From a virus, in IMG/VR virus record IMGVR_UViG_3300031825_000041, positions 1-39,909 of that record: a stretch of 39,909 nucleotides of DNA; one strand, written 5' to 3'. This document shows positions 1 to 39,909 of this stretch, piece after piece; positions within the stretch are counted from its first letter, which is position 1; each line of letters begins with the position of its first letter. The notes under the pieces were generated by a model, which worked only from the letters and a program-made list of their open reading frames with translations, did not search any database and was not told the DNA's origin. A program made the translations under genes and the position numbers.

Positions 1-127
1 ATTAACAGTGATACCTATATTCGCTCCAACATCAACGATGGTTAGATCCTTTTTTTGATTTAGCACATCAAGATAAACACCTTCAAGGTAAATTTCTTTA
101 AAGATGTAAGGGATAAAGAGGGTATCA
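1..127. repeat. Terminal overlap copy 1: bases 1-127 are identical to 39783-39909
   Basis: Read directly: both copies start attaacagtgatacctatat and end agggataaagagggtatca. This implies a circular or circularly permuted unit of 39782 bp. A 127-nt overlap is typical of an assembler k-mer overlap. Confidence 0.95.
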
Positions 128-201
128 AAATTAATCGGCTCACCGTTTTGATCTGTTCTTGGAAAATGCAACGCTCCTAATTTAACTTTTTTATCTATCA
201 T
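1..201 (-). CDS. FkbM-family SAM methyltransferase, N-terminal segment of a gene split by contig linearisation (continues 39782->39279)
   Basis: Minus-strand ATG at 201-199 follows AGGAGGTGAAAT (rc of 202-213). The translation MIDKKVKLGALHFPRTDQNGEPINFDTLFIPYIFKEIYLEGVYLDVLNQKKDLT runs in frame through the 127-bp overlap into the ORF listed at 39279-39848. Total length is 705 nt (234 aa). Confidence 0.8.
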   Translation of the reverse strand, partial: MIDKKVKLGALHFPRTDQNGEPINFDTLFIPYIFKEIYLEGVYLDVLNQKKDLTIVDVGANIGITVN

Positions 202-211: not shown

Positions 212-688
212 CTAACGTTTAAGTGATATAAAGCTTGGTTTATTGTTTTTAAGCATAAATTTAAGAATTGTAGATATCTGTTCTTTAGTTTCCGGAAAAT
301 ACTGCACAACATTTGGGCAAGTACCAAGCAGCATAGCGGCATCAGTAGCATCATGAGAATGGCCATCGTGGGTGTAATCTTTATTCCTTCCGCTGCCTAC
401 TAATTTAACAGGTACTCCTTCTACATCTAAATAAAGTTTTATTGTTTCGTAAGGTCGTCTTAAAAGAAATGGTGTAATTGAGTAAACGAATGGAACCTTG
501 CCTTTAAGAGCAAGTCCTACAGCAATACCCATCATAGCTTGCTCAGAAGCCCCACAATTGACGAAACGATCAGGAAAGTCTTTCTGTATCTGATCCCACA
601 TCATGTACCCTAAATCTCCTGTAAGAAGCCATACGTTAGGATTTTCTTTCATTATTAAATAAAGCTCATTAGCAAATGTTCTTCTCAT
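212..688 (-). CDS. Transketolase-like ThDP enzyme, C-terminal (pyrimidine-binding) subunit, 158 aa
   Basis: Motifs FVNCGASEQAMMGIAVGLALKGKVPFVYSITPFLL are typical of the transketolase/DXS Pyr domain. Its start overlaps the stop of the N-terminal subunit gene (685-688). Confidence 0.75.
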   Translation of the reverse strand: MRRTFANELYLIMKENPNVWLLTGDLGYMMWDQIQKDFPDRFVNCGASEQAMMGIAVGLALKGKVPFVYSITPFLLRRPYETIKLYLDVEGVPVKLVGSGRNKDYTHDGHSHDATDAAMLLGTCPNVVQYFPETKEQISTILKFMLKNNKPSFISLKR

Positions 689-1308
689 TGTGTAATCTCT
701 TTATACTTCTCCTCATCCATGACTACATAATGCCCTGCAACGCCTTGTAGCCAATCAGGATAATCCAATAAATCAGTTTGTGCTACTAACGCCGGATAAA
801 AATATTGCATACGAGTATCTAGAAGTTCAGGATCAGTTTTACCAAGAGCTGAGTGTCCATTTGCGTTTACTGTTATTCGTAAATTCTCAAGCCTTTGTTC
901 TCCGGCTATTCGTAGAGCTTCCCAATTACTACCTTCAGCCATCGCTCCATCTGAGGTTAAGACATAGACGTTTTGTCTTTTATCAGCTAACGCCATGCCT
1001 ACCGCTATTGGCAATCCTTGTCCTAGACTGCCAGTAGAGCAATAAATGAGGTCTTGAAGATCACGATTAGGATGGACACCATGTTTATCGAATAATTGTT
1101 CAGCATCTTTAAAGTGAAGCTTCTCAAGCACAACATAGAGAGCGAGTCCGGCGTGACCGTTATCTAATATAAAAGGTTCATCGTGTTTTTTAACTAAATA
1201 GATATGATCTATAAGTCGTACTGCGGTAAGACAAGATGAGAGATGAGCTAAACCTTTTTTATATGAGATATCTATAATTCTACGTTCGAGTTTATTGAGC
1301 TGCTTCAT
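685..1308 (-). CDS. Transketolase-like ThDP enzyme, N-terminal (diphosphate-binding) subunit, 207 aa
   Basis: Contains GHAGLALY, GSLGQGLPIAVGMALA and the ThDP motif SDGAMAEGSNWEA. Paired with 212-688 as a split enzyme. Confidence 0.75.
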   Translation of the reverse strand: MKQLNKLERRIIDISYKKGLAHLSSCLTAVRLIDHIYLVKKHDEPFILDNGHAGLALYVVLEKLHFKDAEQLFDKHGVHPNRDLQDLIYCSTGSLGQGLPIAVGMALADKRQNVYVLTSDGAMAEGSNWEALRIAGEQRLENLRITVNANGHSALGKTDPELLDTRMQYFYPALVAQTDLLDYPDWLQGVAGHYVVMDEEKYKEITQ

Positions 1309-1382: not shown

Positions 1383-2192
1383 TTAGCTTTTTTGTGACTC
1401 ACTTTTTACCTCCTTTAAAATATATTCACTCACCATTTCTTTAATTGAGTTTTCAAGAGTTTTTTTAGGAAGCCAACCATATCCACGAGCCTTATAGTTA
1501 TTAGATACCCAGTCTGTATTGTCATAAGATCTAAAGGATTGAACCCTATTGATATTTGCCTTTAATCCTGTTACTTTTTCAACAAGCTCAAGCACTTTTT
1601 CATTTGAGGTTTTAATTCCGGTACCTGCCTCAAATATTCCCCTTGCTCCATGCTGTGAAAGAGAAAGAATACACTCAACTACATCGTCAACATCTATAAA
1701 ATCATGTGTTGGTTCGCCAACGAAATTAATTCTTTCTTGTTTAAGACATGACCGGATAAGAGTTGGGATTAAATGAACTGCTTGCTCACCAACCCCCGTA
1801 ATAGAGAAAGGTCTGATAATACAGATTGGTATATCATGCTTTTCCATTTCAGCTAGAAGAACTTCCTCTGCTGCTTTTTTTGCTCTAGAATACATGATCT
1901 GTGTTCGAAGTTTTACCGAGGACGAAGAAATATACACAAACGATTTAAACTTAAAATCTTTTGCTTGAAGAATAATTTTAATAAGATCTTCTATATTCGC
2001 TCTGAAAATCTTCTCGTCATCTAATTGAAGATGGTGGATGTTACCATAAGAAGAAAGAAAGTAAAAATAATCAAAAGGTTCTAGTTTAGTAGTTTGAAGC
2101 TTATCATGAGGAATAGTGATAACATCTCCCTGTAATCTTTTAAGAAGATGTTGACCTAAAAAACCAGAACTTCCACTAACGTATACCTTCAT
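1383..2192 (-). CDS. NAD-dependent sugar epimerase/dehydratase (extended SDR)
   Basis: N-terminal Rossmann motif VSGSSGFLGQHL and catalytic YxxxK (YSRAKKAAE); 269 aa. Confidence 0.8.
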   Translation of the reverse strand: MKVYVSGSSGFLGQHLLKRLQGDVITIPHDKLQTTKLEPFDYFYFLSSYGNIHHLQLDDEKIFRANIEDLIKIILQAKDFKFKSFVYISSSSVKLRTQIMYSRAKKAAEEVLLAEMEKHDIPICIIRPFSITGVGEQAVHLIPTLIRSCLKQERINFVGEPTHDFIDVDDVVECILSLSQHGARGIFEAGTGIKTSNEKVLELVEKVTGLKANINRVQSFRSYDNTDWVSNNYKARGYGWLPKKTLENSIKEMVSEYILKEVKSESQKS

Positions 2193-2208: not shown

Positions 2209-2240
2209 CAAAAAAACGCACCAACCTTTCGGCTGTGCGT
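2209..2240 (-). terminator. Intrinsic terminator (cassette c)
   Basis: Minus strand ACGCACAGCC-GAAA-GGTTGGTGCGT followed by TTTTTTTG. The stem has one bulged G and a GNRA loop. Confidence 0.75.
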
Positions 2241-2272
2241 TATGTCCGTAACATTACGGTATTAGCAAATTA

Positions 2273-2301
2273 TTTATATACTCTTTTTTGAGATTTGTCA
2301 A
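2273..2301 (-). promoter_or_regulatory. Sigma70-type promoter TTGACA-17-TATAAA (cassette c)
   Basis: Minus strand TTGACA (2301-2296, overlapping the TGA stop of 2298-2825), 17-bp spacer, TATAAA (2278-2273). Followed by the box TTTGCTAATACCG shared with 9396-9408. Confidence 0.6.
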
Positions 2302-2825
2302 CCCACCCCAAGAGCTGCAAGGGTTTTGACTGTTGCCCCCGCTGCTGAAGGAGTATACTCAACATACATGTCAACTGGCCCCGCAACAGTACCGCTTCCT
2401 AATGGATCTTGTGGGCCATCGGCATAAGTATCACTATTTTTCCAGGAAGCTCCGGCAGTTGCCTGTCTGCTCCATGTAAAGTTAATTGCTCCAGGGTCTT
2501 GAAACAAAATTCCATAAGCGTATTTAGTCCCTGCGGTTAAAGCAATTGCATTAGCTCCAGAGAAGGGGAATGTTTGGTCTGCTTCAGCAGTTGCAGTTAA
2601 CATCACCTCATCGCCCGTAGCAAGAACATGCCCTGTATCGCTCCAAATAACACCTTTAACTAGTGATGATCCGGCGGCGGAGAGCCACACTCTAGCATGA
2701 ACTGCAACCAAAGTTCCGTTACTAGCCGGAGTCGACTCAGCGTCGGCGGCTTTGTTAACTAAATTTGAGTCTGCACTTGAGGTTGAACTTCCTGCATTAT
2801 CTCCTGTTTGTCCAAATGTTGCCAT
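2298..2825 (-). CDS. Ala/Ser/Thr/Gly-rich virion-associated protein (function unknown)
   Basis: ORF track; located in the late head-proximal block. GC-richer than the genome average by eye. No motif recognised. Confidence 0.6.
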   Translation of the reverse strand: MATFGQTGDNAGSSTSSADSNLVNKAADAESTPASNGTLVAVHARVWLSAAGSSLVKGVIWSDTGHVLATGDEVMLTATAEADQTFPFSGANAIALTAGTKYAYGILFQDPGAINFTWSRQATAGASWKNSDTYADGPQDPLGSGTVAGPVDMYVEYTPSAAGATVKTLAALGVG

Positions 2826-2826
2826 A

Positions 2827-3120
2827 CTAATTATCCTCGCAAGCTTTATCCAACTTTATGAGAGCATCATTAGCATCAGCTTGATCTGGAGCAGTTAGAG
2901 TACAGTCTTCTTGTTTACCTTCCAAAGAACATAATTTATTTCTATAGTCTACTGTTTCACTGCTGGCTTTTATATAGCAATTTGTTCTTATTTGTGAGGG
3001 AGTTAGGACTTTAACTTCTTGAGTTTTAACAGGCTTAGAAACCTCTTTGTGTTTAAGAAGAAAAAAAAGACCTATTATTGATAAAAAATATAAGAATATA
3101 AAAATTGATATTATTTTCAT
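2827..3120 (-). CDS. Small membrane-anchored or secreted Cys-containing protein
   Basis: N-terminal hydrophobic segment IISIFIFLYFLSIIGLFFLL followed by a polar domain with 4 Cys. AT-rich ORF lying between two GC-richer genes. Confidence 0.6.
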   Translation of the reverse strand: MKIISIFIFLYFLSIIGLFFLLKHKEVSKPVKTQEVKVLTPSQIRTNCYIKASSETVDYRNKLCSLEGKQEDCTLTAPDQADANDALIKLDKACEDN

Positions 3121-3196
3121 AAGCGTGTAATTTTATAACTAAATTATTAAGAGATAATTAAATTATTCCTGAAAGTATACCAACTTCCTTTAAGGT

Positions 3197-4219
3197 TTAT
3201 TTATAGAAAAATACTGCTTCTAATGCTGTTGTTGGTGCTGCGTTTCCTCCACCTGTTGTTGTTGCGGCAACAGACCACCCTGCATTACTAAAAGTTATTC
3301 CATTTGTAAATTCCACGTTTGCTGCTGAAGTTGCGGGAATACAAATAACAAAAAGGGGATTAGTAGTTCCAACAGTGACCGAAGCGGCAGCGGTGTTATA
3401 TAAAACAACATATGTAGCTGCGGCATTTGGATTATAAATATACCATCCATAAAGATTTCCGGCAGATGCTTTAATGACTTGAGCAGAATTAGTTAAAGCA
3501 GTTCCTCCATCTTGAGAAGTTGCTGCAAATACGGAAAGCCCATTGGCGGTTTGTGGAGCAACGTTTACCTGTCCAATATTATTAGTTCCTGCGTTAAGCC
3601 CTACTACTCCCGTTGAGTCATTTGCAATTGTCACTCTTTGCACGCCTGTACCTGATGCTCCATTACCCATTGTGGTTGCTACGCCATTTATCTGCGCTAC
3701 ATTAACACTTTGATTAGCCTCAAGATGTCCAATCTGATTTGATCCGGTCTGAAGGGTTGCTTGAGTTGCAAAAGTACCCGCATTGGTAACATCATGAGAA
3801 GGAATAGAGGCTACTGAAATTGGCAAAGCTGTGCCCGATCCATCTACCTTTAATCCTCCCCCTGCACCTAATGCAGCAGGTAATAAAGCGATTAAAGATG
3901 TAAGTCTCTGAGCAATTCTTTGAAGTCTTCCATTAAGGCCTGATGAAGCCGTATCTGTAGCTGGTGCTGTTTCAGTTACCGCACCGATAAGGGTTTGTTC
4001 TGTTACCTGATTAGCAGCCGTGGCATCTCCGCCACCACTCATAACGGCTACATTAACTTTCAAATTTCCATCCGTATCTGATTGAAGTCTTTTTAATGAG
4101 CCACTAAATTCTGCCAGAAGAATAGTAGCAAAAACATTATATAACTCATCAAACGATGAGTTTTGCATGTATTGTTCAGAATATTTATTTTGACCTGCTG
4201 GTCTTTGTGGTACTGCCAT
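3197..4219 (-). CDS. Gly/Ala/Thr-rich virion structural protein (possible decoration or fibre protein)
   Basis: 340-aa ORF downstream of the capsid genes. Low-complexity GGG/TA-rich middle and a beta-rich C-terminus (LYGWYIYNPNAAATYVVLYN). Confidence 0.55.
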   Translation of the reverse strand: MAVPQRPAGQNKYSEQYMQNSSFDELYNVFATILLAEFSGSLKRLQSDTDGNLKVNVAVMSGGGDATAANQVTEQTLIGAVTETAPATDTASSGLNGRLQRIAQRLTSLIALLPAALGAGGGLKVDGSGTALPISVASIPSHDVTNAGTFATQATLQTGSNQIGHLEANQSVNVAQINGVATTMGNGASGTGVQRVTIANDSTGVVGLNAGTNNIGQVNVAPQTANGLSVFAATSQDGGTALTNSAQVIKASAGNLYGWYIYNPNAAATYVVLYNTAAASVTVGTTNPLFVICIPATSAANVEFTNGITFSNAGWSVAATTTGGGNAAPTTALEAVFFYK

Positions 4220-9413: not shown

Positions 9414-9442
9414 TTTATACCACTGCTATTCCTCTTTGTCAA
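9414..9442 (-). promoter_or_regulatory. Sigma70-type promoter TTGACA-17-TATAAA (cassette a)
   Basis: Minus strand TTGACA (9442-9437, inside the last codons of 9426-9626), 17-bp spacer, TATAAA (9419-9414), then TTTGCTAATACCG. Confidence 0.6.
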
Positions 9443-11663: not shown

Positions 11664-11743
11664 ACCTTACATGTTTCCGGATCACTTGATCCGTGTATAC
11701 ATTTATTATTCATTGCAAACACACGATTTAAGTTAGTATTCAT
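11657..11743 (-). CDS. Small ORF, 28 aa, translationally coupled to terS (not in ORF track)
   Basis: GGAGGTATT precedes the ATG. Translation MNTNLNRVFAMNNKCIHGSSDPETCKVC. The stop TAG overlaps the terS ATG (ATGCTAG). Confidence 0.45.
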   Translation of the reverse strand: MNTNLNRVFAMNNKCIHGSSDPETCKVC

Positions 11744-11820
11744 AATACCTCCATCAACCTCTTATATATAATCTCTCTAGATCAGTCATAGGTATTTTTT
11801 CATCTCACTCTTCATCACTG

Positions 11821-11839
11821 ATCCCGATTTGATCGGGAC
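11821..11839. promoter_or_regulatory. Palindrome TCCCGAT-nnn-ATCGGGA (copy 1 of 2)
   Basis: atcccgatttgatcgggac; the same 7+7 palindrome recurs at 17557-17573. Confidence 0.5.
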
Positions 11840-11847
11840 TGATAGAC

Positions 11848-12078
11848 TCAAAACTTCATCGGAAAATAATCCATTAACCTTGGTTTAGGTAATCTATTAA
11901 ACTTACTCCAATTATCAAGAATTATCTGGCGTTGTTCTTCAAATGTTGGTTTTGCCCAAAACTTCCACCAAGGAATTGATCGCCATTCTTTAATTAATGT
12001 TTCGTTATGTTTAGAAACCAACTCTTTCGCTTTATTCCACTTTTTTAAATGTTGTTCGTATGTCATATCGTTTTTCAC
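11848..12078 (-). CDS. Hypothetical protein, 76 aa
   Basis: ORF track. Confidence 0.6.
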   Translation of the reverse strand: MKNDMTYEQHLKKWNKAKELVSKHNETLIKEWRSIPWWKFWAKPTFEEQRQIILDNWSKFNRLPKPRLMDYFPMKF

Positions 12079-12093
12079 TCCTTTATAGGGGAG

Positions 12094-12312
12094 CTAGACC
12101 CCACTATAAAACACTTGCATATCAAAATAGCTTCTACCCCAAGTAGTGCTATGATGTTTAGCTCCGCATCTTCTACAATCATTTGGTATCTCTGAAGGTC
12201 GTTCTATGCCTGCAATAAGTCCAAACAAACATTTTCCACACTTGAAGATATAATCAGTTTTTGCCTGACATATATAATATAATCCATCTTTTTCAACAAT
12301 TACTCTTTTCAT
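12094..12312 (-). CDS. Small Zn-ribbon-like protein, 72 aa
   Basis: Cys pairs CGKC ... CRRCG. Confidence 0.6.
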   Translation of the reverse strand: MKRVIVEKDGLYYICQAKTDYIFKCGKCLFGLIAGIERPSEIPNDCRRCGAKHHSTTWGRSYFDMQVFYSGV

Positions 12313-12491
12313 TTTTCCACCTCTTTCTTAGAGAGCCAAACTAAATCAATTAATTCGTTTATTTTCTGAGCTAATATAAGAATTGCTATTGTATGAGCAT
12401 CAGTATTATTAGGATCCATATCTTTATGAAGTTTCTCATGCCATTGTGTATATCCTTTTTTGTCCTTAGTTAATTTTATTTTTTTAATCAT
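12309..12491 (-). CDS. Hypothetical protein, 60 aa
   Basis: ORF track; the stop overlaps the next start. Confidence 0.55.
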   Translation of the reverse strand: MIKKIKLTKDKKGYTQWHEKLHKDMDPNNTDAHTIAILILAQKINELIDLVWLSKKEVEK

Positions 12492-12593
12492 ATCTCCCTT
12501 TCTGGTGAGTCTGATAAGTGACTCTTAGGGTACAACTTTGGAAAGCTTTCGGGTCATAGAGAAAGATCTCTGCGGCTCGTGTACCCCTAAAAA

Positions 12594-12719
12594 TCAACCA
12601 AGCCATCTTACTTGATATTTACCGCATTTCTCACAATACCTATCCTGAAGACCATTGCCTTCACTATTATTCCTAGGCTTACTCCATTTACCCCATTTAT
12701 GAAAAATCCAAATACACAT
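12594..12719 (-). CDS. Small Zn-ribbon-like ORF, 41 aa (not in ORF track)
   Basis: Manual translation: MCIWIFHKWGKWSKPRNNSEGNGLQDRYCEKCGKYQVRWLG. The C..H ... CxxC pattern is common in small phage proteins. Confidence 0.45.
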   Translation of the reverse strand: MCIWIFHKWGKWSKPRNNSEGNGLQDRYCEKCGKYQVRWLG

Positions 12720-12736
12720 ATATTTATTCAATCCTC

Positions 12737-13165
12737 TCACTCATTTACTGGCATTATTATTTTGCCATCATAAATATCTGCTGCCATCTTGCAAGTTTTA
12801 CAATTCATACACCTACAACATGCATACCCCATTTCATTTAATTTATTAGCTATTTTTCTAATTTCTTCTTGTCTATTTTCCATTTTCCCCTCCTTCCCAA
12901 ACAATTTTTGACGCATTTCTTGACGTAAAGAGTTTCTATGATAGTCTTTGGGAGTGTGATCTTTATAACTAAGTTCTTCTGAAACAATAAACGTGCTCGG
13001 TTTATCGTCTTCTCCTATCACCTCATCATCAATGAGCTTAATAATCTCACTAATTAAAACTTCTATATCTTTTTCTGTAAGAGTACACTCTCCATAGTAT
13101 TCATTACCAGTATCTATCTTGTAACTAATTAATATTTCTTTTAATTTATCTTCAAATTTACTCAT
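12737..13165 (-). CDS. Hypothetical protein with Cys-rich C-terminus, 142 aa
   Basis: ORF track; C-terminal CCRCMNCKTCK. Confidence 0.65.
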   Translation of the reverse strand: MSKFEDKLKEILISYKIDTGNEYYGECTLTEKDIEVLISEIIKLIDDEVIGEDDKPSTFIVSEELSYKDHTPKDYHRNSLRQEMRQKLFGKEGKMENRQEEIRKIANKLNEMGYACCRCMNCKTCKMAADIYDGKIIMPVNE

Positions 13166-16840: not shown

Positions 16841-17530
16841 TTATTGATTTGCTTTAAAAAACGCATTTGCAAATCCTGCTGGTGTGATTGAACGTAATTC
16901 TTTTCTTGTTCTTTTATTGCCGGGCACTTCATCAACGGGACTTTTTAATGCTTTAATTTCCGACATAAGCAATGCATCGAACTTCTTATCATTCTTCATC
17001 ACCCATTTTTCCAATTTAACCGGTTCGTTGAAATATCCCCATAGAGCTGTATTCTTCTTATAACCATCACCAAATTCATAAGGCTGAAACGTATATACCG
17101 GCTTTCCTATATGCCATTTCAACATACCAAGATTAGGGTTTTCTAATGCCCAAAACTTTAAAGGTGGTAATTTTTGGAATTGGTTATGCAGCGTCCGCTG
17201 ACAAGCGCTTATAATCTCAAAACATTTATTGACCAATGCCATACTGTTAGTTAAATCTCTGGGTCGTTTTGGACTCAATCGAACAAAACTAAACATGGTA
17301 CAGGGTGGAGCTGCGAGAATACCGTAGACATCCTTTGGATCAATCACAAGTGCGACACCAGTATCATCACCGGCTCTAAAATTTATCTTATTATCTTCAA
17401 AAGTGGTATACATAATGTCATATTCAGGAACAGTGATAACCTTCACATCATAGCCAGCCTTTTTATATGGCCTACTCCATGCTCCTGTTCCTCCGCATAA
17501 ATCTAAAATAATTTTGTTTTCGTTATTCAT
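16841..17530 (-). CDS. DNA (cytosine-5) methyltransferase, short form
   Basis: Motif I DLCGGTGAW, motif IV AAPPCTMFS, motif VI ALENP; 229 aa. Confidence 0.65.
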   Translation of the reverse strand: MNNENKIILDLCGGTGAWSRPYKKAGYDVKVITVPEYDIMYTTFEDNKINFRAGDDTGVALVIDPKDVYGILAAPPCTMFSFVRLSPKRPRDLTNSMALVNKCFEIISACQRTLHNQFQKLPPLKFWALENPNLGMLKWHIGKPVYTFQPYEFGDGYKKNTALWGYFNEPVKLEKWVMKNDKKFDALLMSEIKALKSPVDEVPGNKRTRKELRSITPAGFANAFFKANQ

Positions 17531-20849: not shown

Positions 20850-21416
20850 TTAGTACCAGTTATGCTCCTTCCAGAATGCCCATGCTTCTTTAGGTGTGCC
20901 ATATCTTGATTTGATATAGTTAAACCCAAACTTGATTTGATCTTCTAAGTCAGTGCCACCCATCTTTGAACAAGGAAGGGCTTGGAATAACCCACACGCT
21001 CCACCATTTGGATTGACAGCCTTTGGATCCCAACCAGACTCATGGATTACTATCTGATCAAAAGCATCTACCTGATCCTCTCCGAACTCAATTTTGACTA
21101 AAGAAAGTACAATTTCTCTTGTCTTCATATCTGGATTGACTTTCATAGGCAGATCGACAGTAAACTTCTCAGTGTATGGAGCTGAAGCATCTGCCTTAGG
21201 AGCATTAACAATAGGCATTAAAGCATTAGTTAAAACAAAAACTACTAAAGTCATTACAGTTGCTTTGTAAATAATCCTTTTGAATTTGTTTAAGAACTTA
21301 GCTAAGAGTTTAAGTAGGTAGAAAAAGATAATAATTACTAAAGCAATTGGATAAGCGATAACATCAGCTACTTTTTTTTCCGGTGCTCTTAATGGTTCGT
21401 GCAAGAGGTTTTTCAT
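20850..21416 (-). CDS. Membrane-anchored transglycosylase-like muralytic protein
   Basis: Two N-terminal TM segments. The C-terminal HESGWDPKAVNPNGGACGLFQALPCSKMGG resembles the transglycosylase-like domain of Gram-positive surface proteins. Confidence 0.55.
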   Translation of the reverse strand: MKNLLHEPLRAPEKKVADVIAYPIALVIIIFFYLLKLLAKFLNKFKRIIYKATVMTLVVFVLTNALMPIVNAPKADASAPYTEKFTVDLPMKVNPDMKTREIVLSLVKIEFGEDQVDAFDQIVIHESGWDPKAVNPNGGACGLFQALPCSKMGGTDLEDQIKFGFNYIKSRYGTPKEAWAFWKEHNWY

Positions 21417-21669: not shown

Positions 21670-21748
21670 GTGAGTTAGACTAAAATTTTCGGACTAGGCC
21701 CACAACTTTAGTACGAAAGTTTTAATTGCTGTTTCTAAATCTGTCCCT

Positions 21749-32802: not shown

Positions 32803-33846
32803 TTATCCAAAAATACTATTCTTTTGTTGGTCAGTATTATTACTAAATCCAAAGAGAGAGGGAGCAGTTGTACCAGTTCCTGAAATACCTCCAATTGGAG
32901 CAGCAGTTGGCATTGTGTAATTAGTCGTTGAAACTTGAGAAAGATTAGACTTTAGCTGATTAATGTCATTTGAATGGTTCATTGCCCATTGATCAAGAGC
33001 AGATTTCCTATTTACCGCCTCAGCTTGTACGTTTTGAAGCTGTTGTAAAGCAACATTAAGAAGATTTTGCGACAGACTTGCCAAATCCTGTCCCTTTTGA
33101 AGTTGTCCTTGAGCTTGTGCCTGTTTAAGAGCATTTTGTTGTTCTGAGAACCACTGAGCGATACCTGAAATTTGTTGATCTCGTTGTGAGGCGAGATTAT
33201 TTACTTCCCCGTTATAAATTTCATTTAATCTTGACTCCCGTCCATTAATATCATTTTGAATATTTGCGTATTGTGCAGTGACATCTCCTCTCTGTTGAGA
33301 ACCCAGTTTAGTTAAGGCATAAGAATATTGATTAGCCGCTGAAGAGTCCGCAGCTCCCCGCGCGCCCAAGTAAACATTTCCTGATTGAAAGAGATTTCTA
33401 ATATTAGCTGAAAGATCGTTAAGCGTCTTAGCCTGTTGAGTATTAGCATTAGTTCTTTGGGTGCCCAAATCCTGAAGACCGAGGTTCTTTTGCGTATTAA
33501 GCTGATTTACTCCCTGATCGTATTGACTATTAGCAATACTTTCTTGTGCAGCTCTTTGAGATGGAAGACCATTGTTGAGAACATCATTAAGTGAATTAAA
33601 ATAAGCGTCATAGCCTGAATTAATGTCATTTCTCACTTGAGCTGATGGATCAGAAGTTGATGTGTTAACAGCTGGAGCTGGAGCAGTTGCTCCTAAAACT
33701 TGACCACCACCAGTCGTTGGACTCGATTGAGCAACTCCAGTTCCTATAAACGGGACATTTACGCCCGGACGCGACTGAGGTGCATACGTTTGACTGCCTT
33801 TGTAATTTGCGTATCTTGGGTCTGTTTGACTTGAACCGTAAATCAT
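32803..33846 (-). CDS. Gln/Asn-rich coiled-coil virion protein, 347 aa
   Basis: First gene of the tail block, with SD AAGGAG upstream and Q/N-rich heptad-like composition. Confidence 0.55.
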   Translation of the reverse strand: MIYGSSQTDPRYANYKGSQTYAPQSRPGVNVPFIGTGVAQSSPTTGGGQVLGATAPAPAVNTSTSDPSAQVRNDINSGYDAYFNSLNDVLNNGLPSQRAAQESIANSQYDQGVNQLNTQKNLGLQDLGTQRTNANTQQAKTLNDLSANIRNLFQSGNVYLGARGAADSSAANQYSYALTKLGSQQRGDVTAQYANIQNDINGRESRLNEIYNGEVNNLASQRDQQISGIAQWFSEQQNALKQAQAQGQLQKGQDLASLSQNLLNVALQQLQNVQAEAVNRKSALDQWAMNHSNDINQLKSNLSQVSTTNYTMPTAAPIGGISGTGTTAPSLFGFSNNTDQQKNSIFG

Positions 33847-33862: not shown

Positions 33863-34348
33863 GTGAATAAACTTATAGGCTTTATTGGCCTAATCGTTTT
33901 TATCTCTTTAAGTTATTTCTTTGTTAATTTAAGTCTTCCGCCAAAGGCTGTTAGTGTTGTGCCGACACCTACTCCAAAAGAAAATAGATACGATCCATTA
34001 CCTAAACCTCTCTCTGCTGAAAAACTTACGGCACTCGTCAATAAATGGCGAGTCTCGCAAGGCTTTCAACCGTACGTAAAAAATGAAGATTTATGTCAAA
34101 TTGCTATTGATAGATCAGATGAAGGAGCCGATAACCATAAAGGATTTTTAGAAAAATACTCTAATTTCCCCTCAGTAATCCAAGAAAATTTAGTGCAAGC
34201 TAGTAACGAATATTCTGCTTTATCCTCATGGTTAAATTCAAAACCACATCTCGCAACACTTGAAAAACCATATAAATATTCCTGTATAGCTTGTTATAAA
34301 AACCAATGTAATCAGATTTTTTCCAATCTCGAAAACGGAACACGATAA
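33863..34348 (+). CDS. Secreted CAP/SCP (YkwD-like) domain protein
   Basis: N-terminal signal or TM segment LIGFIGLIVFISLSYFF. CAP-like blocks LVNKWRVSQGFQPY, ENLVQASNEYSALSSWLNSKPHLATLEKPYKYSCIA. Confidence 0.6.
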   Translation: MNKLIGFIGLIVFISLSYFFVNLSLPPKAVSVVPTPTPKENRYDPLPKPLSAEKLTALVNKWRVSQGFQPYVKNEDLCQIAIDRSDEGADNHKGFLEKYSNFPSVIQENLVQASNEYSALSSWLNSKPHLATLEKPYKYSCIACYKNQCNQIFSNLENGTR

Positions 34349-34360: not shown

Positions 34361-34411
34361 CTAGCACATTCCTGTGCCACCGCATTTAGGACATTTCTTT
34401 TTCTTAGCCAT
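34361..34411 (-). CDS. Tiny ORF, 16 aa, with a CxxCxGxG motif (not in ORF track)
   Basis: AAAGGAGAAATAT precedes the ATG; translation MAKKKKCPKCGGTGMC. Confidence 0.3.
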   Translation of the reverse strand: MAKKKKCPKCGGTGMC

Positions 34412-34438
34412 ATATTTCTCCTTTCATTTTTTTCACAC

Positions 34439-34498
34439 AAAAAAAGCCGTCCTTAGAACGACTTTCTAGAACCTAGAAAATTATTCTAAAAACGGCTT
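34439..34498 (-). terminator. Long imperfect hairpin terminator (cassette d)
   Basis: Minus strand AAGCCGT ... TTAGAA ... TTCTAA ... ACGGCTT followed by TTTTTTGTG. Confidence 0.65.
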
Positions 34499-34540
34499 AC
34501 CTGACAACCTCGTGTTGGCTCAGCCAAATAGATTAACTCA

Positions 34541-34569
34541 CTTGTATCACTTTTTTTCTTATTTGTCAA
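34541..34569 (-). promoter_or_regulatory. Candidate promoter TTGACA-17-TGaTACAAG (cassette d)
   Basis: TTGACA (34569-34564) overlaps the last codons of the HNH gene. The -10 is weaker (TACAAG) but is preceded by TG. Confidence 0.35.
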
Positions 34570-35197
34570 CTACCAAAGTGTGATTTCCATAAGTAGGTGT
34601 TTTTCTGTGACAATTTGCGCAAAGCGTTCTACCATTACTTAATGTATAACGTAACTCAGGATATAAAGCCCAAGATTTAATATGGTCAGCATTTAACTCT
34701 CCGTTGCCTCGTTTACCACATTTCTGACAAATATAGTTGTCCCGTTCAAATACTGCTTTCCTCCATTGTTTATATTCTCTTTTTTGCATTAAATATTGTC
34801 TTTCAGTTTTATGTAATTTTGACAATCCTCCTTGCCAATTCCAATGAGAGCTTTCAGACATATCTAGTCCACTACAATTTCTAGAACAATATTTTCTGTT
34901 TTTATAAAAACTATCTGATCTAAAACAATAAAATCTTTTATTGCAAACCTTACAAAACTTAAAATAACCTGCCGTAACCTTACGAAGACACTCATTAGAA
35001 CAGTAGTTCCTAACATTTCTTTTTGCTTCACTAATACGAATTTCATAACCTTTCTTGCAGTTAAGACAAGTTTTATTAACTCTTTTTCTTGTTGGTAAGG
35101 CTGCGCACATTTGAGAACAATATTTACCTCTTCCTCGTTTAATAAAAGATGGGTATGTTCTAAAAAGCTTATTACAAGTTAAACAATTAAGCGTCAT
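34559..35197 (-). CDS. HNH endonuclease with three N-terminal Cys4-type repeats
   Basis: C-terminal ICQKCGKRGNGELNADHIKSW ... NGRTLCANCHRKT. Three repeats of the form CxxCxK ... YCSxxC. Confidence 0.8.
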   Translation of the reverse strand: MTLNCLTCNKLFRTYPSFIKRGRGKYCSQMCAALPTRKRVNKTCLNCKKGYEIRISEAKRNVRNYCSNECLRKVTAGYFKFCKVCNKRFYCFRSDSFYKNRKYCSRNCSGLDMSESSHWNWQGGLSKLHKTERQYLMQKREYKQWRKAVFERDNYICQKCGKRGNGELNADHIKSWALYPELRYTLSNGRTLCANCHRKTPTYGNHTLVVDK

Positions 35198-36270
35198 ACT
35201 ATAGATTTAAAAAATTCTGCGTATTTATGAATGTTGTTTTGAATCTGCCAATCTTTTTTAATAGTTTCAAAAGCATTCTCTCCCATTTTTTTTCTCTTTT
35301 CAGGATTATCTATTAAAGTTTTCAAATGAAAATACCAGTCTTGAGCTGATTTTGCCAATAAACCATTACTACCATTGATAACTTCTTGATACTGACGAAT
35401 TGATTGGTAAATTCCTGGAATACAAGCAGAACTGGTTTCTAAATACTTTATATTACTTTTCGATCTTGTATATATATTGTCCTCTAAAGGTGCAACTAAT
35501 ATATCAGCCTCATCCATAAATTTAGGGAAATGATCATTAATCCACTTGTATATATCAGAGTCTCCATATCCTGTTTCGCATCTCATTCCCCACATATCTT
35601 TTAGTTTAGGCAGGAACGCACCAACGAATTTAATTGATACATTTGGGTATTCTTTCATAATCTTATCTACTCCGGTAATAAATTCCTGATTTGAAAGATC
35701 ATCAAAATGAGTAGTAGATCCATAATGGAGTAATTTTATTCTCTCATTATTTTTAAATTCTGAACGATGTTTATATAGCTCTAAATCGACATAGTTTGGA
35801 AAGACTTTAATAAATTCTGCTCTTTTACCAGTATTATTAATTACAACATTTTTAAGATAGCTATTTGTAACAGTCATAAAATCAACTTCGTTACAGATAG
35901 CATTAAAATCAGATAGTGCTTTACTTCCTTTGTGATAAACAGAATAGGCTGGATTATCTTTTCTTATATCCCAAAGTGAGTCGTCTAAGTCCAGGATGAT
36001 TTTTACCCCATGTTTACGAGCCATAGCACCCATAGCCGCAAATCCCCAAGGGTTAGCAATATAATTAAGATAAAAAATATCATGGGTTTTAGCGAGGTCT
36101 ACCCAATCAGTTTTTTTACTAATATCAAATTGGGTTACTTCAATTTCAGTCTCATCATCTTTATACCCATGAAGATGTTTCATCGGTTGGATGATCCGGG
36201 CGAAATCCACGCCTGATGTACGTTCTTCCGTTTGGTGTGATGGTAAAGCAAAAATTTTTATTTTCTTCAT
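35194..36270 (-). CDS. Glycosyltransferase (GT-B fold, family-1-like)
   Basis: 358 aa with two-domain Rossmann-like organisation and a C-terminal acidic segment ADILVAPLEDNIYTRSKSNIKYLE. Family not verified. Confidence 0.55.
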   Translation of the reverse strand: MKKIKIFALPSHQTEERTSGVDFARIIQPMKHLHGYKDDETEIEVTQFDISKKTDWVDLAKTHDIFYLNYIANPWGFAAMGAMARKHGVKIILDLDDSLWDIRKDNPAYSVYHKGSKALSDFNAICNEVDFMTVTNSYLKNVVINNTGKRAEFIKVFPNYVDLELYKHRSEFKNNERIKLLHYGSTTHFDDLSNQEFITGVDKIMKEYPNVSIKFVGAFLPKLKDMWGMRCETGYGDSDIYKWINDHFPKFMDEADILVAPLEDNIYTRSKSNIKYLETSSACIPGIYQSIRQYQEVINGSNGLLAKSAQDWYFHLKTLIDNPEKRKKMGENAFETIKKDWQIQNNIHKYAEFFKSIV

Positions 36271-36521
36271 GCAATGGCTAAAATATCTTCTTCTTTGATC
36301 ATGATATATTCCTGATTTTCAAAATTAAATTCGTTCCCTCCCCACTTAGGATAAAGAACTTTCATTCCTTTTTTAACTTTCTTAGCTTCATCCCCAACTT
36401 CAAGAACTTCTCCTAATTGTGGTTTTTCTTTAACTGTTTCAGGAATATAAATTCCACCTGTTGATTTCTTTTCCTTCTCAGCAGGTTTAATTAAAATATT
36501 TGCAAATAATGGTTTAATCAT
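36267..36521 (-). CDS. groES: Co-chaperonin GroES/Cpn10 homologue
   Basis: IKPLFANILIKPAEKEKKSTGGIYIPETVKEKPQLGEVLEVG ... YIMIKEEDILAI aligns by eye with the GroES consensus (mobile loop STGGIYIP). Confidence 0.85.
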   Translation of the reverse strand: MIKPLFANILIKPAEKEKKSTGGIYIPETVKEKPQLGEVLEVGDEAKKVKKGMKVLYPKWGGNEFNFENQEYIMIKEEDILAIA

Positions 36522-37291
36522 TGTGTTGCGTCAATAAATTTATCTAAATTCTTTTCAAAAGATTTGACCATTCTAATATAATGCCCCCTGAATAGATCAG
36601 TTTCCAGCTCTATTTCTTCATCTTTTCCCCAGGAAATACCATTCATACCAGGCTCGTATGTGCTAAACTCTTCTTTTGTATATATAGGATTAATCATAAT
36701 AATCCGTACGCCACAAAGCCTCGCTACCTCAGTCATAGCAGTATTTGGGTCATAACAATACAAAACTTGGCACTCATTTAAAAGATCTGCTAAGGCCTGT
36801 TGATCTTGCGCAAACTCACGGTTAATTTCGATTGAGTCCTTAGGATGAATAAATTTAAGAGGATAATTCATTCCCTTCCCGATTAAGTAAGCTGTTTTCG
36901 TTCTTTTCCTTTTTTGGTCTTTAAATAAATGCAAATTTAAGATGGGAAGAAACATTGTGTTTTCATCCGTACCTCCATAAAGTCGGGAAAAGTAATAAAG
37001 CTTATCAGTTGGGTCAAATTCAGTAGGGCCAAATCGGGTCGACCCATCACTTAAAAGAGCAGGAACAACACCAGGCTTATTCAGGATATATCTCACTACT
37101 GTTGAGGCTTGAGCAGGATTACCTACTTCAATCTCAGGATAGATCGCAATACAATCACCTGTAGCAGGTCGTTCATTAAGAAAAGCTACCTGTCCTTTCG
37201 CAAGAAGCCACCCGTAGAGTCCGTACATAACACGTACACCACCGCTAGTTATCTCGAAAGGCGGAGCAGTAAGAACGTAAGGCCTAGACAT
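36518..37291 (-). CDS. Hypothetical protein, 257 aa (possible glycosyltransferase-like)
   Basis: ORF track; the N-terminal SGGVRVMYGLYGWLLAKG resembles a GT-B N-terminus. Weak call. Confidence 0.6.
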   Translation of the reverse strand: MSRPYVLTAPPFEITSGGVRVMYGLYGWLLAKGQVAFLNERPATGDCIAIYPEIEVGNPAQASTVVRYILNKPGVVPALLSDGSTRFGPTEFDPTDKLYYFSRLYGGTDENTMFLPILNLHLFKDQKRKRTKTAYLIGKGMNYPLKFIHPKDSIEINREFAQDQQALADLLNECQVLYCYDPNTAMTEVARLCGVRIIMINPIYTKEEFSTYEPGMNGISWGKDEEIELETDLFRGHYIRMVKSFEKNLDKFIDATQ

Positions 37292-37667
37292 AAGATCCTC
37301 CTCTCTGCTTGTACCACGGAAAATTTTGTATTGCTTTTAACTTCTTTTCTGGTGTTAAATCATATTTTCTATGGCAACTTGTACATAATCTTATCCAATC
37401 CGATAAATCTCTTTTATATTCGTGACTTTTATTTGCCCATTCGTACTTCTTAGCTGTTGTACTACCACAATGTTCACATTTTTGAGGTTTACCCAATCTT
37501 CTTTTTACCCAAGAATGTAAAGCTTGCATACCTACTTTTCCATCTTCTCTATAGTTCCAAGGTATAGATCCGTTTTTAAATTCAGTAGGAGGAGAAAGGT
37601 GTTGACCTTTTTTAATTTCTGTATCTACTGAATAATGTTGTCCTTTTTTAATCATAATATTGCCCAT
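37284..37667 (-). CDS. HNH-type homing endonuclease-like protein
   Basis: CEHCGS ... YEWANKSHEY ... WIRLCTSCHRKYD, plus an N-terminal duplicated IKKGQH motif. Confidence 0.55.
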   Translation of the reverse strand: MGNIMIKKGQHYSVDTEIKKGQHLSPPTEFKNGSIPWNYREDGKVGMQALHSWVKRRLGKPQKCEHCGSTTAKKYEWANKSHEYKRDLSDWIRLCTSCHRKYDLTPEKKLKAIQNFPWYKQRGGSYV

Positions 37668-37695
37668 TTTGGAGCTGTTAATACATAAGGTCTAT

Positions 37696-37992
37696 TCATT
37701 TTAATAAATTATTATCTTTTAATATTCCGTAAATATTCATTGACCAAGCTTTAACAAGACGTTCTTCGTCCTCACTCGTTAATTTTTCCCATCCTGTTGT
37801 ATGACGCAACGCTATATGTACAAGTTCATGAATGAGTGTTTGTTCCATTTTGTCTCGACTTTGATCTTTTTCTAAATGAATAGTTCCTTTTCCCTGTAAG
37901 GTCCTACCCCAACTGTCGCCTCCATCAAGATCTTTTACGATATAAACTTTATAATCAAATCCTGCAAAATGTACTTTTTTAGGTATTTTCAT
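37696..37992 (-). CDS. Small putative Zn-metallopeptidase (HExxH)
   Basis: LIHELVHIALRH motif; 98 aa. Confidence 0.4.
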   Translation of the reverse strand: MKIPKKVHFAGFDYKVYIVKDLDGGDSWGRTLQGKGTIHLEKDQSRDKMEQTLIHELVHIALRHTTGWEKLTSEDEERLVKAWSMNIYGILKDNNLLK

Positions 37993-38729
37993 AGATTTTT
38001 CATCACGTAACTCTGACCATAAGACAAATTATGAAGCCACAGTTTAACCTCATCAGTTAGTGGCATATTAGGAAAATCTAATTTAGGAAAATGGTTTCCT
38101 CGTGCGAAGTGGTAAGCTAGAACTTGTTCTTCACGACACATTAACTTATCATTTTCGATATAGAACTGTGGTTCTCTTCCAAGAGATTTACAACCGTAGT
38201 AATCCTTTTCTTTATCGAAGATTTTAAGTTTTAATTTTTTAATCTCAGGATCGTTGTAGACCACAAGATTAGCTATGTCATTCTCTTTTCTAAGATATTG
38301 CATAGCGTTTCTATTCGCTTCTCTCCATGTGGCTAAGAACTCTTTGGAGGTTGTCGCCCACATCCCAGCCTGCAAATACATTTCTTCAGTTATGTTCTCA
38401 AAAGAAGCGTTCTCGTAATCGTTGAAGTTCCACGGAAAACCGATGTCATAATCTAGATTGTCAAATACCTCAGTCATACGTCCGGTAATGACGTGATCTG
38501 CGTCTATGTTACATATGAGATCATAGTCTTTCTCAAGAAGTTCAGCCAAGAAAGGCTTTGCTTGATACCAGTTGATATTCTTCTCAGGGAATAACTTATC
38601 AACTGTATCTTGTCTAAAGACCACAAGATCAATATCGGGATGAAACTTCTTAAATGAGTTCACCATAATATGCGTACCTTCTGCGTAGTACAATCTGTCG
38701 TCTACTGCTGTAAATGCTACTTTTCTCAT
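37989..38729 (-). CDS. Putative nucleotide-sugar glycosyltransferase (GT-A, DxD type)
   Basis: The NIDADHVITG DxD-like motif follows a Rossmann-like N-terminus. Family not verified. Confidence 0.45.
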   Translation of the reverse strand: MRKVAFTAVDDRLYYAEGTHIMVNSFKKFHPDIDLVVFRQDTVDKLFPEKNINWYQAKPFLAELLEKDYDLICNIDADHVITGRMTEVFDNLDYDIGFPWNFNDYENASFENITEEMYLQAGMWATTSKEFLATWREANRNAMQYLRKENDIANLVVYNDPEIKKLKLKIFDKEKDYYGCKSLGREPQFYIENDKLMCREEQVLAYHFARGNHFPKLDFPNMPLTDEVKLWLHNLSYGQSYVMKNL

Positions 38730-39247
38730 CTTCTTGCTATAAAATGACCATTTAGTAATTCAGTATATCTATAACCCAACGCTATTAATCTATTTTTAAA
38801 TAATTCTCTTCTTTCATCCTGGTAATGCAACTCTCCAATAATCGTTGTAATTTTATCTGCCGGAAAGTCCAAAGCATTAATAATTTCTAACTCATCACCC
38901 TCTACATCAAGCTTTAAGACGTCTACGTACTTAATCCCGCAACCTTCCATGAACCCTTTTATCGTCTCTGTAACTGTAGACTCCACCCCTCCGATTTTAG
39001 ATGTATAAACTTTTATATTCTCAAAGCCGTTATCGCGTACTGACTTTCTAAATAAAGTCGTCACCTTTTCGTCGCAATCAACTGCATAAATTTGTTTAGC
39101 TTGTTTTTGCAACCAAAGACTAAAAGTACCGATATTACAACCTACATCAAGCACAATTAAATCCTCAAACAAAAACTTATATTCTTGTTTTTCTATAACT
39201 TCAAAGATATATCTTGTCGTATCACAATGAATTATCATAATCTCCAC
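38726..39247 (-). CDS. SAM-dependent methyltransferase (FkbM-like)
   Basis: Motif I LIVLDVGCNIGTFSLWL and acidic motif II YAVDCDE. Confidence 0.65.
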   Translation of the reverse strand: MEIMIIHCDTTRYIFEVIEKQEYKFLFEDLIVLDVGCNIGTFSLWLQKQAKQIYAVDCDEKVTTLFRKSVRDNGFENIKVYTSKIGGVESTVTETIKGFMEGCGIKYVDVLKLDVEGDELEIINALDFPADKITTIIGELHYQDERRELFKNRLIALGYRYTELLNGHFIARR

Positions 39248-39278
39248 TCAGCCCCCCTCCCAAGAGGCTGAATGCAAA

Positions 39279-39909
39279 TTATCTAAAAAAGAGAACAATA
39301 ATTGCACTACTATCGTATCTTCTTGCTTGAAATCCAAGACTTTGCAGATACTTTACAATATTTTGCCAGTCTGAGTGATGGAACTCACACTCAATAGCTT
39401 TGATCTTATGGGCAACTTTTTTAAATCCCTCAGAATAGAGAATTAACTCTTCCGATCCTTCAGGATCAAACTTCATAAAGTCCACTTCTTCAATACCGTT
39501 CTCTTCAAAGAAAGTATCTATTGATTTTGTTGGAACTTTAAAGCTTGGCTGATACCAGCCTCCAGGCCCTACAGGATGACTACCTTTAGGGTCAATCAAA
39601 GCATTAGTTGTTCTATTGTTTGGTGCTTGAGCAAATTCCATTTCTCCATTACGATCTGCAAGAGCGTAGTTAAACAATTCAACATTATCCCACTCGTTCA
39701 CTTTCTTATTTGCTTCAAGTGCTGCATAGTTTTCAGGTGAAGGCTCTATTGCATACACTTTTTTAGCAAAATCCTTAAAATAATTAACAGTGATACCTAT
39801 ATTCGCTCCAACATCAACGATGGTTAGATCCTTTTTTTGATTTAGCACATCAAGATAAACACCTTCAAGGTAAATTTCTTTAAAGATGTAAGGGATAAAG
39901 AGGGTATCA
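39279..39909 (-). CDS. FkbM-family SAM methyltransferase, 3' part (open to the window edge; N-terminus encoded at 201-1)
   Basis: Motif TIVDVGANIGITVNYF. The reading frame stays open upstream of the listed start (a GTG at 39848) to base 39909. Confidence 0.8.
   Translation of the reverse strand, partial: DTLFIPYIFKEIYLEGVYLDVLNQKKDLTIVDVGANIGITVNYFKDFAKKVYAIEPSPENYAALEANKKVNEWDNVELFNYALADRNGEMEFAQAPNNRTTNALIDPKGSHPVGPGGWYQPSFKVPTKSIDTFFEENGIEEVDFMKFDPEGSEELILYSEGFKKVAHKIKAIECEFHHSDWQNIVKYLQSLGFQARRYDSSAIIVLFFR
39783..39909. repeat. Terminal overlap copy 2 (identical to 1-127)
   Basis: Exact identity to the first 127 bases of the window. Confidence 0.95.

Follow-up and report, generated by a model that had tools for sequence, protein, structure and literature searches.

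A conserved seven-gene glycan module with a miniature transketolase in the structural block of a family of uncultured podovirus-like phages

The window analysed here is the complete 39,909-nt stretch of IMG/VR virus record IMGVR_UViG_3300031825_000041 (positions 1 to 39,909). It derives from a temperate, podovirus-like phage belonging to a family of uncultured phages of about 38-43 kb (~40-kb). Between its head and tail genes lies a core of seven genes. These encode a nucleotide-sugar enzyme of the short-chain dehydrogenase/reductase (SDR) family, the two subunits of a miniature transketolase-like enzyme (TK-N and TK-C), an FkbM-type methyltransferase and three glycosyltransferases (GTs), namely u246, u257 and GT358. 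The core is a lineage-defining glycan module of this phage family. It most likely glycosylates exposed virion proteins, by O-glycosylation in the cytoplasm late in infection, a reading held with middling confidence.

The module was conserved in position. A capsid-based scan of IMG/VR gave 42 related loci, and every locus with enough downstream sequence contained the module. A scan of IMG/VR with the u257 profile gave 36 contigs. The order capsid, variable slot, SDR, TK-N, TK-C, FkbM, u246, u257, GT358, g347 and tail was found on 36/36 contigs and was near-constant at capsid identities down to ~50%. The SDR gene was missing once (a contig seen as L038 and L068) and was relocated on the near-identical loci L082 and L083. 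The first FkbM gene (FkbM1) was present in all relatives and an accessory paralogue (FkbM2) in about a third. Hundreds to thousands of homologues were found for each of u257, u246 and TK-N (478 for u257 and 547 for u246), the closest all being on 35-43-kb contigs. GenBank phage searches with these three proteins found no cultured phage relative carrying the module. At nucleotide level the region had no match in GenBank phages, and the capsid protein was ≤30% identical to anything in GenBank phages. An earlier, sequence-only reading had described the region as an island inserted between head and tail genes. A recent island was rejected by the synteny census, which placed the module at the same position in all 36 relatives, and the GC content of 30.5-37% was not clearly foreign. 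Such positional fixity is unlike that of accessory conversion genes. A different glycan-type cassette occupied the same capsid-to-tail position (8216-12879) in the very distant 40-kb Manatee Spring podovirus MW202801.1 (L086). This cassette encoded an Fe-S oxidoreductase, a GT, a PhyH dioxygenase, a methyltransferase, a NodB-like protein and a final GT358 homologue.

The terminal 127 nt were identical at both ends of the window (1-127 = 39783-39909), indicating that the assembly is circular and truly 39,782 nt long. An independent 53,250-nt ENA contig (ERZ27250632 k141_231295) was contiguous and 100% identical across the junction. Nine tightly packed open reading frames (ORFs), all on the minus strand, occupy 34559-39909. 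The 127-nt overlap and the contiguous 53-kb assembly bear out the view that this row continues across the circular junction into 1-2192. The interval from head to tail contains a co-oriented row as had been described, which comprises 12 genes counted across the junction rather than ten.

Profile and fold searches confirmed the presence of GTs and corrected the earlier count of at least two to three. GT358 (35194..36270, minus strand), the last core gene, is a GT4-type glycosyltransferase of the GT-B class (phrog_7162, 7.7e-27). Glyco_trans_1_4 was matched by 24/25 members of the GT358 family, and the family profile found BshA, PglA and TreT in the PDB, which identifies it as GT4-type. Against GenBank phages it gave weak matches (26-30% identity) to GTs of Streptomyces phages and of an uncultured podovirus. 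The GT at the same position in MW202801.1 was 26% identical over the full length.

The other two GTs, u257 (36518..37291, minus strand, 257 aa) and u246 (37989..38729, minus strand, 246 aa), had no family match in Pfam, PHROG or NCBIfam searches. Profile searches with both against PDB sequences gave nothing usable and they were identified by fold comparison alone. AlphaFold2 models were built from alignments of 35-36 homologues (pLDDT 93.3 for u257 and 84.7 for u246). Foldseek comparison, one of the checks that had been proposed for such ORFs, placed both among the glycosyltransferases. The u257 model has a compact GT-B fold. Its best PDB matches were AmGGT (8xsg, 1.9e-4), Gtf3 (3qkw), GtfC (4w6q) and SenB, with a TM-score of about 0.55. 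The list included small-molecule GTs (SpnP, SpnG, SenB and a methylmannose polysaccharide mannosyltransferase). Giant-virus GTs were among the viral fold matches and the phage GT HY126 appeared only at rank 49. AmGGT shares 51% identity with its homologue ApAgt, an enzyme that extends N-linked glucose on adhesins, and AmGGT/Agt, Gtf3 and GtfC are all cytoplasmic elongators of glycans already on adhesin proteins (PMC12159676). The u246 model has a GT-A fold and is GT8-like (retaining-type). Its PDB matches were LgtC (1.7e-7), WbbM, BoGT6a, glycogenin, the GT8 enzyme GlyE and the catalytic domain of UGGT. The DxD motif of u246 (D76-A-D78) was invariant across relatives; the invariance of catalytic residues in u246, TK-N and TK-C was assessed across 24-36 relatives. 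None of the module enzymes has a transmembrane-like segment, and no flippase, polymerase or priming transferase was found among the Pfam and NCBIfam matches of the module.

Two FkbM-type methyltransferases had been proposed and both scored above the TIGR01444 cut-off. FkbM1 is cut by the terminal overlap. Its 3' part lies at 39279..39909 (minus strand) and continues at 128-201, because 1-127 duplicates 39783-39909. Its 5' part spans the assembly junction at 1..201 (minus strand), with the start codon at 199-201. The joined protein has 234 aa and a true start at window position 201, where the ORF list gave 39279-39848. It was also called as a 234-aa gene on an independent contig (L045, 7309-8013). 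The joined protein matched TIGR01444 at 3.5e-28 (98.9 bits compared to the curated cut-off of 37.7). FkbM2 (38726..39247, minus strand, 173 aa) matched TIGR01444 at 5.3e-13 (49.6 bits compared to the same 37.7) and PF05050 at 3.3e-9. The PF05050 scores of the two FkbM proteins were 80 and 37.5 bits, compared to a cut-off of 22.7. The first core gene (1383..2192, minus strand) encodes the SDR-family nucleotide-sugar epimerase/reductase of 269 aa (PF01370, 3.1e-20; phrog_540 'nucleotide-sugar epimerase', 2.7e-30). It retains the GxxGxxG and YxxxK motifs, and its best PDB matches were Pal, MoeE5, GalE and GDP-6-deoxy-hexulose reductases. A glycan function had been suggested for the region and it is supported by the GT folds of both ORFs lacking a Pfam family, by the FkbM scores and by the catalytic motifs kept in the SDR and in the thiamine diphosphate (ThDP) enzyme.

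This ThDP enzyme is encoded by the next two core genes. TK-N (685..1308, minus strand, 207 aa; PF00456, 1.9e-13) is a miniature pyrophosphate (PP) domain subunit and TK-C (212..688, minus strand, 158 aa; PF02779, 1e-21) a miniature pyrimidine-binding (Pyr) domain subunit. The closest PDB matches of TK-N were human transketolase and the N chain of a split-chain transketolase (6yak, 309 aa). The best PDB match of TK-C was the C chain of the same kind of enzyme (6yaj, 341 aa), of which only residues 37-191 were aligned. The split-chain transketolase of Carboxydothermus hydrogenoformans (6yak/6yaj) also consists of two subunits in PP-then-Pyr order; it was the best sequence match for TK-C and among the best for TK-N. 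The ThDP-binding motif, the active-site His and the activating Glu are conserved, so that a PP domain with a ThDP/Mg motif and a Pyr domain with the activating Glu are both present. Invariant residues were H52, H79, the GSLG motif, D120-G121, E125-G126 and N150 in TK-N, and the cofactor-activating E49, D108 and H112 (DG.H motif) in TK-C. Both subunits are shorter than those of the split-chain enzyme (207 compared to 309 aa for the N subunit and 158 compared to 341 aa for the C subunit) and the whole transketolase C-terminal domain is missing from TK-C. Two substrate-phosphate-binding residues of canonical transketolase appear by eye to be replaced, so the substrates may differ.

The short form is conserved. 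The lengths of both subunits were conserved in 35 relatives (201-235 aa for TK-N), and the miniature form makes its own cluster in a global protein library. When 1.84 billion representatives were searched with TK-C, most of the ~50 best matches were 150-175 aa long; these were followed by canonical C subunits of ~300 aa at 35-40% identity. TK-N matches in GenBank 'phage' records were set aside, as these were full-size split transketolases on unverified gut contigs and not the miniature form. TK-N and TK-C were almost always encoded beside the SDR. The truncation with catalytic residues kept, together with the adjacency to the SDR, argues for a dedicated role outside central metabolism. The pair is therefore read as a putatively active, specialised ThDP enzyme derived from a split transketolase. 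The split transketolase of the sequence-only reading thus stands as two subunits, in a conserved truncated form and not an ordinary one. It may transfer a C2 unit to a keto sugar. The literature searched held nothing relevant on transketolase-like enzymes of nucleotide-sugar pathways or on the sample accessions.

The variable slot (2298..4219, minus strand) lies between the head genes and the SDR gene and encodes candidate acceptor or fibre-like proteins. In the window these are g340 (3197-4219, minus strand; S+T+A+G 46%), g97 (2827-3120, minus strand; N-terminal transmembrane segment) and g175 (2298-2825, minus strand; S+T+A+G 50%). None of the three had a family match. Over its first 48 residues g340 shared 51% identity with a 112-aa ORF that occupies the equivalent position in L001. 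The slot ranged from about 0.4 to 7.5 kb in the relatives. In four distinct relatives a Ser-rich-repeat protein of 843-1189 aa was encoded directly upstream of the module. Ser-rich-repeat proteins were found at 10944-14144 in L001, 16766-20335 in L004, 9959-13297 and 13299-14228 in L005, and 11613-14144 in L038. A globular N-domain is followed by 400-700 aa of SPSAS-type repeats containing up to 62% Ser per 60 aa. The four large proteins have three kinds of N-domain and a common C-terminal motif of ~25 aa (..LIL[VI][DN]GK[LF]A..[FY]Y..I). No homology was found between g175 and the N-domain of the Ser-rich proteins. The slot proteins of other relatives matched tail-fibre/collagen-like PHROGs. 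The slot also contained extra genes, counted by locus as GT2 (11), UDP-sugar-dehydrogenase-like (6), Methyltransf_24 (5), cytidylyltransferase (5) and Asn-synthase-like (4). The proteins at 2298-2825 and 3197-4219 had been put forward as glycan acceptors. The fibre-like and Ser-rich proteins in the same slot of the relatives support this, whereas the window slot has no Ser-rich repeat, and the two proteins remain candidates.

One of the Ser-rich N-domains is phrog_14065 (5.5e-72) and is 31-36% identical to gp13 of Streptomyces phage Hiyaa (L085, MK279841.1). Hiyaa gp13 (1110 aa, in the region 7210-12333) is annotated as 'minor tail protein'. Its gene stands in the interval from the capsid gene to the head-tail adaptor and directly follows an annotated methyltransferase (gp10) and two unknown genes. 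The related phages KimJongPhill and Zuko carry a GT358-like GT.

The following pathway is proposed. Late in infection, the three GTs would assemble a short O-linked glycan on exposed virion proteins that are rich in Ser/Thr, and would do so in the cytoplasm. These acceptors would be encoded in the adjacent variable slot and possibly also among the fibres. GT358 would probably start the chain, and the compact GT-B enzyme u257 and the GT8-like u246 would extend it. FkbM would O-methylate a sugar. The SDR and the miniature transketolase would probably supply a non-standard donor such as a C2-extended or branched sugar. The resulting glycan coat may shield the particle, stabilise it or alter its stickiness. 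The acceptor step, the glycosylation of virion proteins, is entirely inferred. Virion glycosylation is favoured by the solubility of the enzymes, their fixed place in the structural block and their fibre-like and Ser-rich neighbours. A bolder version is that the phages bear mucin-like fibres with a lectin-like tip, a Ser-rich stalk of several hundred residues and a short conserved anchor. These would be densely O-glycosylated by the phage pathway, as an analogue of the bacterial Ser-rich adhesin pathway, with a glycan containing a methylated, C2-extended or branched sugar. The miniature ThDP enzyme, of a minimal two-subunit kind not described before, would make this sugar on a nucleotide-sugar. 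This version is considered unlikely; if true, both the sugar chemistry and the type of virion surface structure would be new, and the structure might mimic a surface glycan of the host.

Several findings weigh against virion glycosylation. The Ser-rich-repeat protein is absent from the window and the slot proteins are only moderately S/T/A/G-rich. The major capsid protein has no S/T-rich tail, ends in ...NSNWVITGRFASA and has an overall S+T content of 18%. The fold matches of the GTs are moderate only, with TM-scores of ~0.5-0.6. Lipid-linked and teichoic-acid intermediates are also substrates of soluble GTs. The phage is temperate, as evidenced by its integrase and a host junction. An FkbM-u246-u257 trio was found in an apparently cellular glycan cluster of a Candidatus Levybacteria metagenome-assembled genome (MAG). 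There u246 and u257 were 53-62% identical to those of the phage, the neighbours were DegT, SDR and GT2 genes, and no phage genes were found within 10 kb, so these enzymes can serve cell-surface glycans. Finally, the module of the window is bracketed by terminator-like hairpins with a promoter-like site upstream and may form an expression unit of its own in the lysogen.

The downstream hairpin (34437..34497, minus strand), found by RNA folding, is long and followed by U7, resembling a terminator at the module end. The fold of 34425-34560 had an energy of -41.2 kcal/mol (z = -4.96) and no shuffle was as stable. The upstream hairpin (2209..2245, minus strand), between g175 and the SDR gene, has 11 bp, a GAAA loop and U7. 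A near-consensus TTGACA-17-TATAAA read by eye at 2266-2301 (minus strand) overlaps the g175 stop codon and is followed by a small hairpin, then the terminator-like hairpin, then the SDR gene. This order of promoter then terminator is reminiscent of antitermination-controlled late promoters. A similar promoter-terminator pairing was seen in L051 and L061. A hairpin with a T-run stood upstream of the SDR gene in 6/27 relatives, and in 20/27 none was found between the head genes and the SDR gene. As the upstream hairpin occurs in only 6/27 relatives, transcription architecture does not separate a virion role from a role at the host surface. A scan for consensus promoters and terminators gave counts not above those of shuffles.

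The prophage-host junction is at window position ~21680-21695, upstream of the integrase, as seen in L047 (1-9817) on contig k141_231295. The 13-kb host flank encodes PilB, PilC, a pilin, PPDK, a phosphoglycerate-mutase-like protein and an RsmI-like protein, and has a GC content of 41% compared to 37% for the phage; its proteins were unnamed singletons. No tRNA was found at the attachment site. TGA is the stop codon in 19/43 window genes, indicating the standard code and making a code-25 host unlikely. Names attached to relatives were a Candidatus Levybacteria MAG, a Gracilibacteria-binned phage fragment and the 'Actinobacteria bacterium RBG_13_35_12' MAG.

The strongest alternative is modification of a host-surface glycan or glycoprotein (wall polysaccharide, S-layer or pilin glycan), the soluble GTs acting on host-made intermediates that are linked to a lipid or polymer. 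It would provide superinfection exclusion in the lysogen or, during infection, prevent re-adsorption of progeny to infected cells. The temperate lifestyle, the Levybacteria trio and the hairpins of the window make it a serious rival, though on balance a doubtful one. The integrase and the junction beside type IV pilus genes suit it, and the hairpins and promoter-like site that bracket the module are moron-like. Genes for cytidylyltransferases and ORFs that are LicD-like by eye, which are typical of teichoic-acid-type decoration, were present in relatives. Prophages are known to modify host glycans, as in O-antigen seroconversion by GtrABC and wall-teichoic-acid glycosylation by TarP, and prophage-encoded TarP-type GTs are soluble. 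The present phage resembles these cases in being a temperate phage carrying GTs. Unlike GtrABC it encodes no GtrA flippase and no GtrB or GtrC membrane proteins, and there is no membrane GT, priming transferase or transmembrane segment in the module. Conversion genes are normally variable, whereas the seven genes are fixed in the structural block (36/36), unlike a moron that varies and lies near the attachment site. In most relatives no terminator precedes the module. Modification of the host surface also leaves the giant Ser-rich and fibre-like phage proteins beside the module unexplained.

Extra genes between TK-C and FkbM1 were observed in L058 (6428-8614) and also in L055, L057, L065 and L066. 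They encode an Asn-synthase-like PP-loop protein, a TagD-like cytidylyltransferase and two ORFs that are LicD-like by eye. This suggests a phosphodiester-type decoration of the glycan.

The product could instead be a free or lipid-linked glycoconjugate, such as a methylated oligosaccharide or glycolipid serving as a decoy, signal or protectant, with the Ser-rich proteins unrelated. The combination of SDR, ThDP enzyme, FkbM and three GTs resembles natural-product and oligosaccharide pathways, and small-molecule GTs are among the fold matches of u257. No carrier, export or lipid-linked functions are encoded, however, and neither the fixed place in the structural block nor the adjacent fibre-like genes are explained. 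This makes a glycoconjugate improbable.

It is very improbable that the region is a loose set of unrelated auxiliary genes, with a transketolase for the pentose-phosphate pathway, GroES for folding and GTs as morons moved by HNH genes. The HNH genes, GroES and the HExxH protein are truly variable passengers, and TK-N and TK-C share 35-40% identity with canonical subunits of split transketolases. The seven core genes nevertheless keep a near-constant order over deep divergence, and the transketolase subunits are consistently truncated, keep their catalytic residues and are nearly always beside the SDR. Phage GT-B enzymes glucosylate DNA and HY126 is in the u257 fold list, yet a T4-like role of the GTs and methyltransferases in modifying phage bases against restriction (as with glucosyl-hydroxymethylcytosine) is very improbable. 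Three GT classes with sugar-nucleotide tailoring far exceed the needs of DNA glucosylation, and the structural-block position and Ser-rich neighbours do not fit. None of the larger early-region ORFs is a candidate for the thymidylate-synthase-like pyrimidine hydroxymethylase that would provide the acceptor base: the early-region ORFs, of which the small ones were not profile-searched, are all ≤229 aa with a 229-aa DNA methyltransferase as the largest. This DNA methyltransferase (phrog_757, 7e-33) is encoded at 16841-17530.

Virion glycosylation by phage-encoded enzymes has precedents. According to the summary in PMC11600133, it occurs in cluster O Corndog-like and cluster F Che8-like mycobacteriophages (Freeman et al. 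2023), where tandem GTs and an O-methyltransferase associated with structural genes modify capsid or tail tube proteins in the cytoplasm. By the same account, the O-methyltransferase and three GTs found here parallel the cluster O arrangement. The likeness lies in phage-encoded GTs and O-methyltransferases clustered with structural genes (here three GTs and two FkbM proteins). At the sequence level no similarity of u246 or u257 was detected by tblastn in 50,697 GenBank phage records. The present module differs in adding its own sugar-nucleotide tailoring (SDR and ThDP enzyme), in having separate fibre-like or Ser-rich proteins as the likely acceptors and in belonging to a podovirus-like phage. 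In Che8 the acceptor is an S/T-rich C-terminal extension of the major capsid protein, whereas the capsid protein of the window has no such tail.

The Ser-rich adhesin pathway of Gram-positives (GtfA/B, Gtf3/GtfC and the GT8 enzymes GlyD/GlyE) uses the same three classes of soluble transferase. On four contigs of relatives the module adjoins Ser-rich-repeat proteins of great length whose tip domain is globular; the window has no such protein. The likeness is at fold and profile level only (TM-score ~0.5-0.6, 10-15% identity), and the acceptor here would be a component of the phage particle and not a secreted adhesin. No GtfB co-activator and no accessory Sec component (SecA2/SecY2/Asp) was found among the Pfam, NCBIfam and PHROG matches of the module and its neighbours. 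Chlorovirus PBCV-1 and giant viruses encode their own SDR-family sugar-nucleotide enzymes, GTs and sugar O-methyltransferases, which act in the cytoplasm on structural proteins. The present module is alike in being a virus-encoded autonomous pathway, and giant-virus GTs were among the u257 fold matches. Those viruses infect eukaryotes, have N-linked glycans in PBCV-1 and no ThDP enzyme, and share no sequence relationship with the module. Compared to known virus-encoded virion glycosylation, the conserved miniature transketolase and, in relatives, the phage-encoded serine-rich-repeat proteins are unusual.

Four further genes of the row are, judged from their distribution, variable passengers outside the glycan machinery. 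Their earlier identifications hold, with the HExxH protein and one HNH gene resting on weak matches. The GroES/Cpn10 co-chaperonin (36267..36521, minus strand, 84 aa) matched PF00166 at 1.9e-25 (89.1 bits compared to a cut-off of 21.1, residues 2-83 covered). It had been counted with the glycan genes, but among the relatives it is a variable passenger, located directly after the capsid gene in L030, L031 and L056, here in L067, and absent in most. It may serve capsid folding. The HExxH protein (37696..37992, minus strand, 98 aa) gave weak Peptidase_M78 and SprT matches and a match to phrog_1233 (7e-16), a family of unknown function. It is unique to this phage, with no tblastn match in related loci. 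The two HNH genes are homing-endonuclease-like and mobile. The 127-aa HNH endonuclease-like gene (37284..37667, minus strand) had weak matches to PF01844 (0.0018) and phrog_8446, and its homologues stand at differing places in L060, L075, L076 and L082. The 212-aa HNH endonuclease (34559..35197, minus strand) matched PF01844 (4.7e-10) and phrog_1271 (1.8e-26), and homologues were found elsewhere in L060 and L080. On 100% identical DNA of L045 (12246-12733) the gene caller split this ORF into genes of 60 aa and 100 aa, so the true start of the gene is uncertain.

The head genes comprise the terminase (10019-11311), a portal-sized protein of 604 aa, a scaffold-like gene and the major capsid protein (5080-6036). 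The tail block comprises g347, a 1320-aa internal virion protein, the SU10-adaptor-like g222, g669, a fibre and the endolysin. The Q/N-rich, conserved g347 (32803..33846, minus strand) is the first gene of this internal-virion/tail block and always follows the module. It is positioned after GT358 and is 32-54% identical among relatives. The 1320-aa protein matched phrog_6651 and stands after g347 with g222. Between the module and g347 the opposite strand carries the gene for a CAP/SCP-domain protein (33863-34348, plus strand) whose N-terminus has a hydrophobic segment. Homologues have the same place and orientation in L036/L080 and L060, and it resembles a secreted moron. Immediately after the terminator-like hairpin at the module end a tiny ORF, MAKKKKCPKCGGTGMC (16 aa, ~34361-34411, minus strand), with a strong Shine-Dalgarno sequence (AAAGGAG), was noted by eye. 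A transglycosylase-domain protein (20850-21416) adjoins the attachment site. An Rfam scan of the window gave no match.

To our knowledge phage virion glycosylation has been demonstrated in only a few actinobacteriophages. If the module has this role, a large and uncultured environmental lineage, with hundreds of homologues on ~40-kb contigs, would be added. The compact ThDP enzyme is a candidate for new carbohydrate chemistry. Part of the idea could be tested in the laboratory with cultured Streptomyces phages, through their weakly related genes (Hiyaa gp13 and the KimJongPhill/Zuko GT). The lineage is also a natural variant series, in which the core is constant and the tailoring enzymes and the fibre or Ser-rich acceptors are interchangeable. 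Conservation of the glycan genes equals that of the capsid gene, which suggests that the coat would be central to the biology of the particle and not optional.

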